A stretch of 64,000 nt of DNA, taken from positions 6,433 to 70,432 of the forward strand of contig CAYWIK010000002.1 in assembly GCA_964458315.1 (NCBI GenBank). The letters run 5' to 3'. The translations under genes were made by a program, and so were the position numbers. Under the pieces are notes generated by a model, which was not told the DNA's origin, ran no database searches, and saw only the letters and a list, made by a program, of their open reading frames with translations. Positions 43,749-43,807 of the stretch are shown here, piece by piece (position 1 is the first letter of the stretch; the number at the start of each line of letters is the position of its first letter). Source of the stretch: an uncultured Spirochaetales bacterium. Its GTDB lineage: Bacteria > Spirochaetota > Spirochaetia > SPDA01 > CAZSGZ01.

Positions 43749-43807
43749 CGTTTCCTCCGTTTAGTTGTTTTTTAGAGGCCTCTATACTTATATATAAGGA
43801 GGAAACG
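43749..43807 (-). promoter_or_regulatory. 10-bp perfect inverted repeat (CGTTTCCTCC / GGAGGAAACG) able to sequester the ssb Shine-Dalgarno sequence
   Basis: Arms at 43749-43758 and 43798-43807 with a 39-nt AT-rich loop; the downstream arm is the ssb RBS plus spacer. Confidence 0.5.

Follow-up and report, generated by a model that had tools for sequence, protein, structure and literature searches.

Our results show that the ribosome-binding site (RBS) of ssb in an uncultured Spirochaetales bacterium is overlapped by one arm of a perfect 10-bp inverted repeat, and that the other arm lies within the spacer of a bipartite, promoter-like motif that recurs upstream of ssb in about 40 related lineages. 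Because this upstream arm sits inside a conserved and probable promoter, the repeat most likely silences only those transcripts that read in from the neighbouring gene. The reading that we tentatively prefer, while granting it rather less than an even chance, is a fold-back mechanism that would insulate the translation of ssb from transcripts reading through out of the fetB-like gene upstream. If it holds, a dosage-sensitive chromosomal gene would be shielded from the transcription of its neighbour by a sequence complementary to its Shine-Dalgarno (SD) element and hidden in the spacer of its own promoter, a compact insulating design hitherto known mostly from transposases. The same reading would also account for the position of ssb a few bases behind an unrelated operon with no terminator in between.

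The repeat is present as first described from the sequence of the window, by which we mean the whole 64-kb stretch of DNA analysed here. Direct reading and a repeat finder agree that it is perfect over 10 bp and overlaps the ssb RBS, and it becomes a 15-nt repeat at 87% when two mismatches are allowed. On the forward strand, positions 43749-43758 read CGTTTCCTCC and positions 43798-43807 read GGAGGAAACG, with perfect complementarity; in the sense of the ssb mRNA (reverse strand) the order is CGUUUCCUCC, a 39-nt loop with 74% A+U, GGAGGAAACG and then AUG. The geometry claimed by the sequence-only reading, a perfect 10-bp repeat that has an AU-rich loop and abuts the start codon, is thus upheld, as is its statement that the downstream arm is the SD plus spacer of ssb and the upstream arm its exact complement. 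The elements of the locus, in the direction of ssb transcription, are as follows.

43826..44635, reverse strand: UPF0014/FetB-like permease gene, co-directional with ssb (Pfam PF03649, E=6.5e-66)
43833..43850, reverse strand: two A7 tracts 11 nt apart, UP-element-like, seen in the sequence inside the 3' end of the fetB-like gene
43822..43815, reverse strand: -35-like box TTGAAGCA, first block of the motif and best PWM match in the 64-kb window
43807..43798, reverse strand: upstream (5') arm CGTTTCCTCC, at spacer positions 8-17 of 18 and upstream of the predicted start
43796..43791, reverse strand: -10-like hexamer TATATA, second block of the motif, placed by PWM alignment at rigid spacing from GAAGCA
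near 43782-43786, reverse strand: predicted transcription start, about 5-9 nt downstream of the hexamer and inside the 39-nt loop
43773..43784, no strand: perfect 12-nt palindrome TAGAGGCCTCTA, seen in the sequence, concentric with the 10-bp repeat and approximately at the predicted start
43759..43772, reverse strand: A-rich stretch of the predicted leader (CUAAAAAACAACUAAAC region), unpaired in predicted folds
43758..43749, reverse strand: downstream (3') arm GGAGGAAACG, SD GGAGG plus 5-nt spacer, adjoining the ATG
43314..43748, reverse strand: ssb, 144 aa, from the ORF list (Pfam PF00436 SSB, E=9.8e-32)
43277-43242, reverse strand: intrinsic terminator 3' of ssb with a 16-bp stem and a T run, from the terminator scan

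The presence of one 10-bp repeat somewhere in the window is unremarkable, since it holds 9 distinct ones that are perfect and have loops of 3-60 nt, where 60 dinucleotide shuffles give 3.4 +/- 1.5 (maximum 7). An exact complement of the ssb SD region of at least 10 nt, within 137 nt, is rare by comparison and is found in only about 0.3% of windows of this sequence.

Protein and locus searches identified the source as an uncultured Spirochaetales bacterium of microbial-mat and stromatolite metagenomes; its SSB protein is identical in metagenomes of both kinds and 10 same-species contigs are identical throughout the region. The nearest other species (L087/L088) has the same gene order and an SSB 81% identical, the best matches in the genome collection are 73-76% identical, and a metagenome scan returned no relative closer than those already compared. 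An ABC ATPase gene precedes the fetB-like permease gene, and the synteny of the fetB-like gene with ssb is common to L087, L174 and L001. The fetB-like frame closes with a TAA at 43828-43826 (reverse strand), only 3 nt ahead of the -35-like box, and the sequence continues with TTCTTGAAGCAGCAGGTC and then CGTTTCCTCC (43807..43798). Terminator scanning found no terminator-like site from the fetB-like gene to ssb, and nothing within 43749-43830, where the loop measures 39 nt and the stem lacks a U run after it. Downstream, trpE comes after ssb and its strong terminator.

Some features of the neighbouring genes are recorded as observations in their own right. The adjacency of ssb and trpE is kept across most of the family. 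In the interval between them (43236-43313, reverse strand), a sigma-70-like TTGACA-N17-TATTCT at 43307..43279 is directly followed by the terminator at 43277-43242, and the listed ATG of trpE comes straight after the T run of that terminator, so that the interval may be a trp leader or attenuator, or the trpE start may be mis-called. The frame of the FetA-like ABC ATPase (44632-45300, reverse strand) runs on upstream of the listed GTG and includes a Walker A motif, GPSGTGKST; this extension has no in-frame ATG, GTG or TTG, and in every same-species contig the gene callers return 146 aa, which suggests a non-canonical start or a decaying gene. The SSB C-terminus (43314-43340, reverse strand) ends in ...EEVAESV in the clade of the window and in ...ALV, ...ETV or ...EVV in its relatives, all of them devoid of the ...(I/L/V)PF tip found in more distant relatives (AALPF, AEIPF, ADVPF). 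In other bacteria this tip is the docking site for partner proteins.

The alignment of ssb upstream regions from about 90 loci yielded 41 sequence clusters with a shared motif. Phased A/T tracts come first, then TTGAAGCA, a spacer of 16 non-conserved nt and G-TAnTAn, often with GGGTG after it; about 41 lineages of Spirochaetales carry this motif ahead of ssb (window 43791-43850, reverse strand; loci L001-L052, L093-L133 and L173-L176). Positions of the first block, tTGAAGCA, carry 1.0-1.7 bits each across lineages. In the second block the most conserved bases are G-T (1.5 and 1.7 bits), with the G present in 34/36 clusters. The distance from GAAGCA to the hexamer is 18 nt in 36 of the 41 clusters, 17 in 4 and 19 in 1, and two peaks of A/T content, reaching 92% A+T, lie 10-17 and 22-27 nt upstream of the TTG of the first block. 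In the window the second block is atypical and scores weakly (6.9 bits), as it has a T where 34/36 lineages have G and is not followed by GGGTG. One further locus is informative about position: in L093 a canonical terminator ends directly upstream of the motif, which leaves no room for another promoter.

A scan of 747 kb of sequence with the motif PWM gave five matches outside ssb upstream regions, four of which belong to unrelated genes and stand 6-20 nt ahead of an SD and start codon: those of a retropepsin-like protease (L022-) and a coiled-coil ORF (L010-), that in L013- and one on the forward strand of the window at 34499. Given its fixed spacing around a free spacer sequence, its A/T tracts and its position at other genes, the motif is probably a promoter, with transcription predicted to start just after the second block. 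Whether or not the fold-back reading holds, this strongly conserved, non-canonical promoter-like motif of ssb is a new feature across a large group of uncultured Spirochaetales. We also considered that TTGAAGCA could be the loop of an RNA hairpin, as flanking complementarity exists in some loci (L016, L021, L050), and dropped this idea since the distance to the second block is rigid and the motif is placed like a promoter at other genes. As a side observation, the forward-strand copy in the window, the second and weaker one there (34496-34545; TTTGAATCAGC...TTAATTATAAC, score 17.3), lies 49 nt before an ORF at 34548..35576 that has a signal-peptide-like N-terminus and no Pfam match, and that is divergent from a cNMP-binding-domain gene at 33840..34523.

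As to the type of promoter, a sigma-70 scan of the gap between the fetB-like gene and ssb found no standard promoter. A canonical TTGACA-N17-TATTCT site lies 500 nt from the motif, which indicates that the motif is not of the standard sigma-70 type. No tRNA genes, from which a housekeeping promoter could have been derived, are present in the window. The consensus sequences of sigma-32 (CTTGAA...CCCCAT), sigma-28 (TAAA-N15-GCCGATAA) and sigma-54 were rejected since their spacing or core bases misfit the motif. Promoters of the ECF type (group 4) have an AAC core at -35 and CGT at -10 with a spacing of 16-17 nt, as in TGAAAC-N16-CGTA for B. subtilis sigma-W. The ssb motif resembles these in its bipartite layout (TGAAGC-N16-nGTA), rigid spacing, conserved G-T and A/T-rich upstream region; however, its first block is GAAGC or GAATC rather than the AAC core or GAAC, and ssb is not a typical ECF target. 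A literature search on spirochaete promoter motifs and on the motif string itself returned nothing usable.

From this arrangement we infer an active promoter, its start position, read-through from the upstream gene and a block of translation by the helix. In the proposed scheme, ssb would be transcribed from its own promoter, made up of the A/T tracts, TTGAAGCA, the 16-nt spacer and (G)TAnTAn. As the predicted start is inside the loop, the gene's own mRNA would lack the upstream arm and carry the SD arm alone, behind a short, A-rich and weakly structured leader, and would be translated. Read-through RNA from the fetB-like gene, which has no terminator after it, would also contain the spacer CGUUUCCUCC, complementary to the SD. 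In these longer RNAs the 10-bp helix would bury the SD and leave them translationally silent, and SSB synthesis would be uncoupled from the activity of the upstream operon.

Predicted folds agree with this scheme. In RNAs beginning at 43950, 43900 or 43825 the pairs of the helix have probabilities of 0.94-1.0 and GGAGG is fully paired, so the claim that pairing would occlude the ssb RBS is borne out in silico for any RNA with both arms. An RNA beginning at 43786 is predicted to form just a 5-bp CCUCU/GGAGG pairing (MFE -6.4 kcal/mol, z = 0.0). The 201-nt read-through RNA is unusually structured (z = -2.8, reached by 1/200 shuffles), and a 111-nt local fold includes the helix at an ordinary energy (z = -1.1). 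Over all loci, SD accessibility is lower in long RNAs than in short ones (p=0.0015), a comparison that is uninformative because lower accessibility is expected for any longer RNA. Independently of the repeat, the 3' end of the fetB-like gene (43886-43899) can pair with ssb codons 6-12 (43714-43732) over a perfect 8 bp (TTGCCTTC/GAAGGCAA); this pairing closes the entire junction in the predicted read-through fold and is, taken alone, at about chance level.

Conservation of the repeat in relatives had been proposed as a check, and it stood in part: the nearest relatives retain the pairing, in places with both partners changed, but extended pairing is absent in about 34 of 41 lineages. L087 keeps 9-10 bp and L173 keeps 7 bp, including a two-sided change. 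In L174 the spacer pairing is degraded, and a perfect 8-nt TTCCTCCG occurs some 60 nt ahead of the predicted start. Of the other close relatives, L001 has TTCC-CCGTAT/ATACGGAGGAA with one bulge and L003 has TTCACTTCGT/ACGGAGTGAA. The arm sequences differ between lineages, with ACTGGTTTTCC/GGAGAACCAGT in L093 and GATTCTCC/GGAGAATC in L111, and L108 and L028 are further positive cases. In a seven-sequence alignment of the close clade, the share of paired cells is 77%, compared with 69% in shuffles, of which 1/500 reach 77%, a comparison biased in favour of the structure because the reference was taken from one of the aligned sequences. Four pairs in this clade have both members altered, and every slid register gives a lower score. 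Among all lineages, complementarity between spacer and SD recurs in 6-7 of 40 (p ~0.004-0.014). Against random 24-mers of the same locus, 6/40 clusters have p<=0.05 (binomial p=0.014, Fisher p=0.012, median p=0.31). An exact complement of the SD anywhere in the 137 nt upstream is not enriched across loci (Fisher p=0.85).

These figures bear on the possibility that the repeat is a by-product without function, which we regard as the main rival, real though doubtful, and which would make the finding an ordinary one. A C/T-rich spacer facing a purine-rich SD would give an automatic complement of 4-6 bp, and chance or template-switch 'quasi-palindrome correction' during replication would lengthen it to 8-11 bp in some lineages. 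Spacer positions 10-17 are indeed 58-72% pyrimidine, with a C at position 16 in 61% of lineages, and SD-complementary 4-mers occur in 14/36 spacers against 14% of background windows, so that a pyrimidine-rich spacer beside the -10-like block accounts for part of the complementarity signal. The rarity of extended pairing among lineages, the nine 10-bp inverted repeats in the window and the 6-7 bp of spacer-to-SD pairing at unrelated genes with the same promoter (L022- and L013-, the former with no co-directional upstream gene) all fit this explanation. Perfect zero-loop palindromes, a signature of template switching, are also enriched in the same region. However, the comparison of spacer-SD duplex energy with foreign spacers, which allows for composition, still leaves 7/41 clusters within the lowest 5%, against an expectation of about 2. 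The arms of several lineages also reach into the unconstrained stretch between SD and ATG with matching changes, and the two-sided changes of the close clade are in register.

A further point against a by-product is the tendency of the pairing towards promoters abutted by a co-directional gene. Three of the 4 lineages with a co-directional gene ending <=35 nt before the box are pairing-positive, compared with 3 of 32 whose upstream genes are divergent or distant; a hand-estimated Fisher test gives ~0.007 with the clade of the window and ~0.04 without it, on very few independent lineages that include the one that prompted the question. The upstream gene is a different one in each of the three positive abutting cases, namely the fetB clade, L003/4 and L108. 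Two cases run counter to the fold-back reading: L027 abuts a co-directional gene and is negative, and L093 is positive despite the terminator ahead of its promoter.

The main model of the sequence-only reading places both arms in the mRNA of ssb itself. It needs a start upstream of 43807, and the hairpin would then be a regulated SD-sequestering leader, opened by a factor, by temperature or by SSB. We consider such a leader unlikely. In its favour, the helix is very stable in any RNA with both arms and persists in the nearest relatives, and another start is possible, given that ours is a predicted one and that the second block in the window is weak. However, the 5' arm occupies a spacer of fixed length and free sequence between conserved blocks, which is promoter-like and not RNA-element-like, the same motif stands directly upstream of the SD at unrelated genes, and the distance from motif to ATG varies threefold (57-176 nt). 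An Rfam scan of 43000-44600 at E<=10 gave chance-level matches, none overlapping 43749-43830; ssb leaders from 37 clusters are not structured above shuffles (mean z = -0.25); the loop has no conserved sensor-like structure; and most relatives lack the pairing. The other option offered by the same reading, a -10 element in the loop with only the RBS arm transcribed, is better supported for the gene's own transcript, since the upstream arm lies at positions 8-17 of the motif's spacer and the motif is promoter-like at other genes. Overall, that first interpretation is partly supported.

The 12-nt palindrome at the predicted start raises the question of an element acting in DNA. Perfect palindromes of at least 8 nt within 24 nt after the -10-like hexamer occur in 12/41 lineages against 3.3 expected (p=7e-5), and those of at least 10 nt in 7 against 0.9 expected; besides the window, they are found at the predicted start in L001, L013, L019, L022, L027, L034, L106 and L108. 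This enrichment at the predicted ssb start is a new feature. The cores vary (AGGCCT, TCCGGA, GCGCGC, GATATC) and are weak as RNA hairpins, and within the close clade GAGGC-T is invariant. In L062, of the distant Sphaerochaetaceae and with the same type of promoter, the spacer ATACCCTT can pair without a mismatch with AAGGGTAT, which lies just ahead of the SD, another inverted repeat around the -10-like block.

A nested quasi-palindrome could thus serve as a protein operator, or as a single-strand hairpin that affects promoter use, a reading we find very improbable. Zero-loop palindromes are poor RNA hairpins yet 4- to 8-fold enriched after the -10-like block, and an outer complementarity that includes this block surrounds them concentrically in the window, L001, L003 and L013; in the L009 group the block also pairs downstream, with a palindrome not exactly centred. 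The palindrome sequences differ between lineages, which makes a single conserved DNA-binding protein unlikely, and a palindromic operator such as a LexA/SOS box was rejected because neither the arms nor the inner palindrome keep their sequence from lineage to lineage and 39 bp separate the arms. To our knowledge, arms at that distance do not extrude as a cruciform in duplex DNA, and chromosomal ssb genes offer no documented mechanism for an arrangement of this kind. The nested quasi-palindrome, an outer spacer-to-SD repeat with a concentric perfect palindrome at the predicted start, does recur in independent lineages with different sequences. That it was selected as a DNA hairpin, forming when the DNA is single-stranded or SSB is limiting and adjusting SSB homeostasis through promoter use, seems to us a long shot.

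An RNA-processing or 3'-end element of the upstream operon, such as an RNase III cut, a terminator or a stabiliser of the fetAB-like mRNA, is highly improbable as well: the hairpin does lie between two co-directional genes and the 201-nt junction RNA is unusually structured, but the long loop and lack of a U tract are not terminator-like, RNase III would be expected to need more than a 10-bp stem next to a 13x14 internal loop, and the structure is not conserved across lineages. An intrinsic terminator of the upstream gene was rejected for the missing U tract and the negative terminator scan. An antisense small ORF behind the mirror-image SD TAAGGAGG (forward strand, 43795-43802) was also discarded, there being no ATG, GTG or TTG in reach and only a CTG. 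Translational coupling through a ribosome terminating on fetB is unlikely, because the 5' arm starts 19 nt past the stop, beyond the reach of a terminating ribosome.

Compared with known SD-sequestering leaders (RNA thermometers, riboswitch expression platforms and ribosomal-protein leaders), the ssb repeat is similar in that the helix covers GGAGG and the spacer up to AUG, with a predicted stability sufficient to block initiation. It differs from them in that its 5' arm is probably outside the primary transcript, and in showing no conserved sensor, Rfam match or family-wide conservation. Phage T4 gp32, to which the locus had been likened, shares with ssb the coding of a single-strand-binding protein and an unstructured A-rich leader stretch before the SD. 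In gp32 control the protein binds cooperatively to an unstructured operator, with nucleation at a 5' pseudoknot, and no hairpin that pairs with the SD is involved; at ssb neither a pseudoknot nor a conserved operator was seen; with no Rfam match and no leader structure above chance, nothing supports a gp32-like autoregulatory operator.

The closest parallel to the fold-back insulation that we prefer is the IS10 transposase gene, which is protected from external transcription by fold-back (Davis, Simons and Kleckner 1985, as cited in PMC13181058). As far as the cited account goes, in IS10/Tn10 the RBS arm pairs with sequence upstream of the gene's own transcription start, so that the inhibitory helix is possible only in transcripts from outside and those from the resident promoter lack the 5' arm. 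At the ssb locus, GGAGGAAACG adjoins the ATG, external co-directional transcription can enter from a gene that stops 3 nt before the -35-like box with no terminator, the helix forms in the long RNA and not in the short one in silico, and the 5' arm would lie upstream of the resident start, itself a predicted one, if the motif is a promoter. The case differs from IS10 in concerning a chromosomal housekeeping-type ssb and not a transposase, in having its 5' arm embedded in the promoter spacer, and in being a trait that is sporadic among relatives and known from sequence alone. Control of this type is already known from IS10 and the setting is new; the ssb repeat probably adds one more case to a known mechanism, or else it is a by-product.
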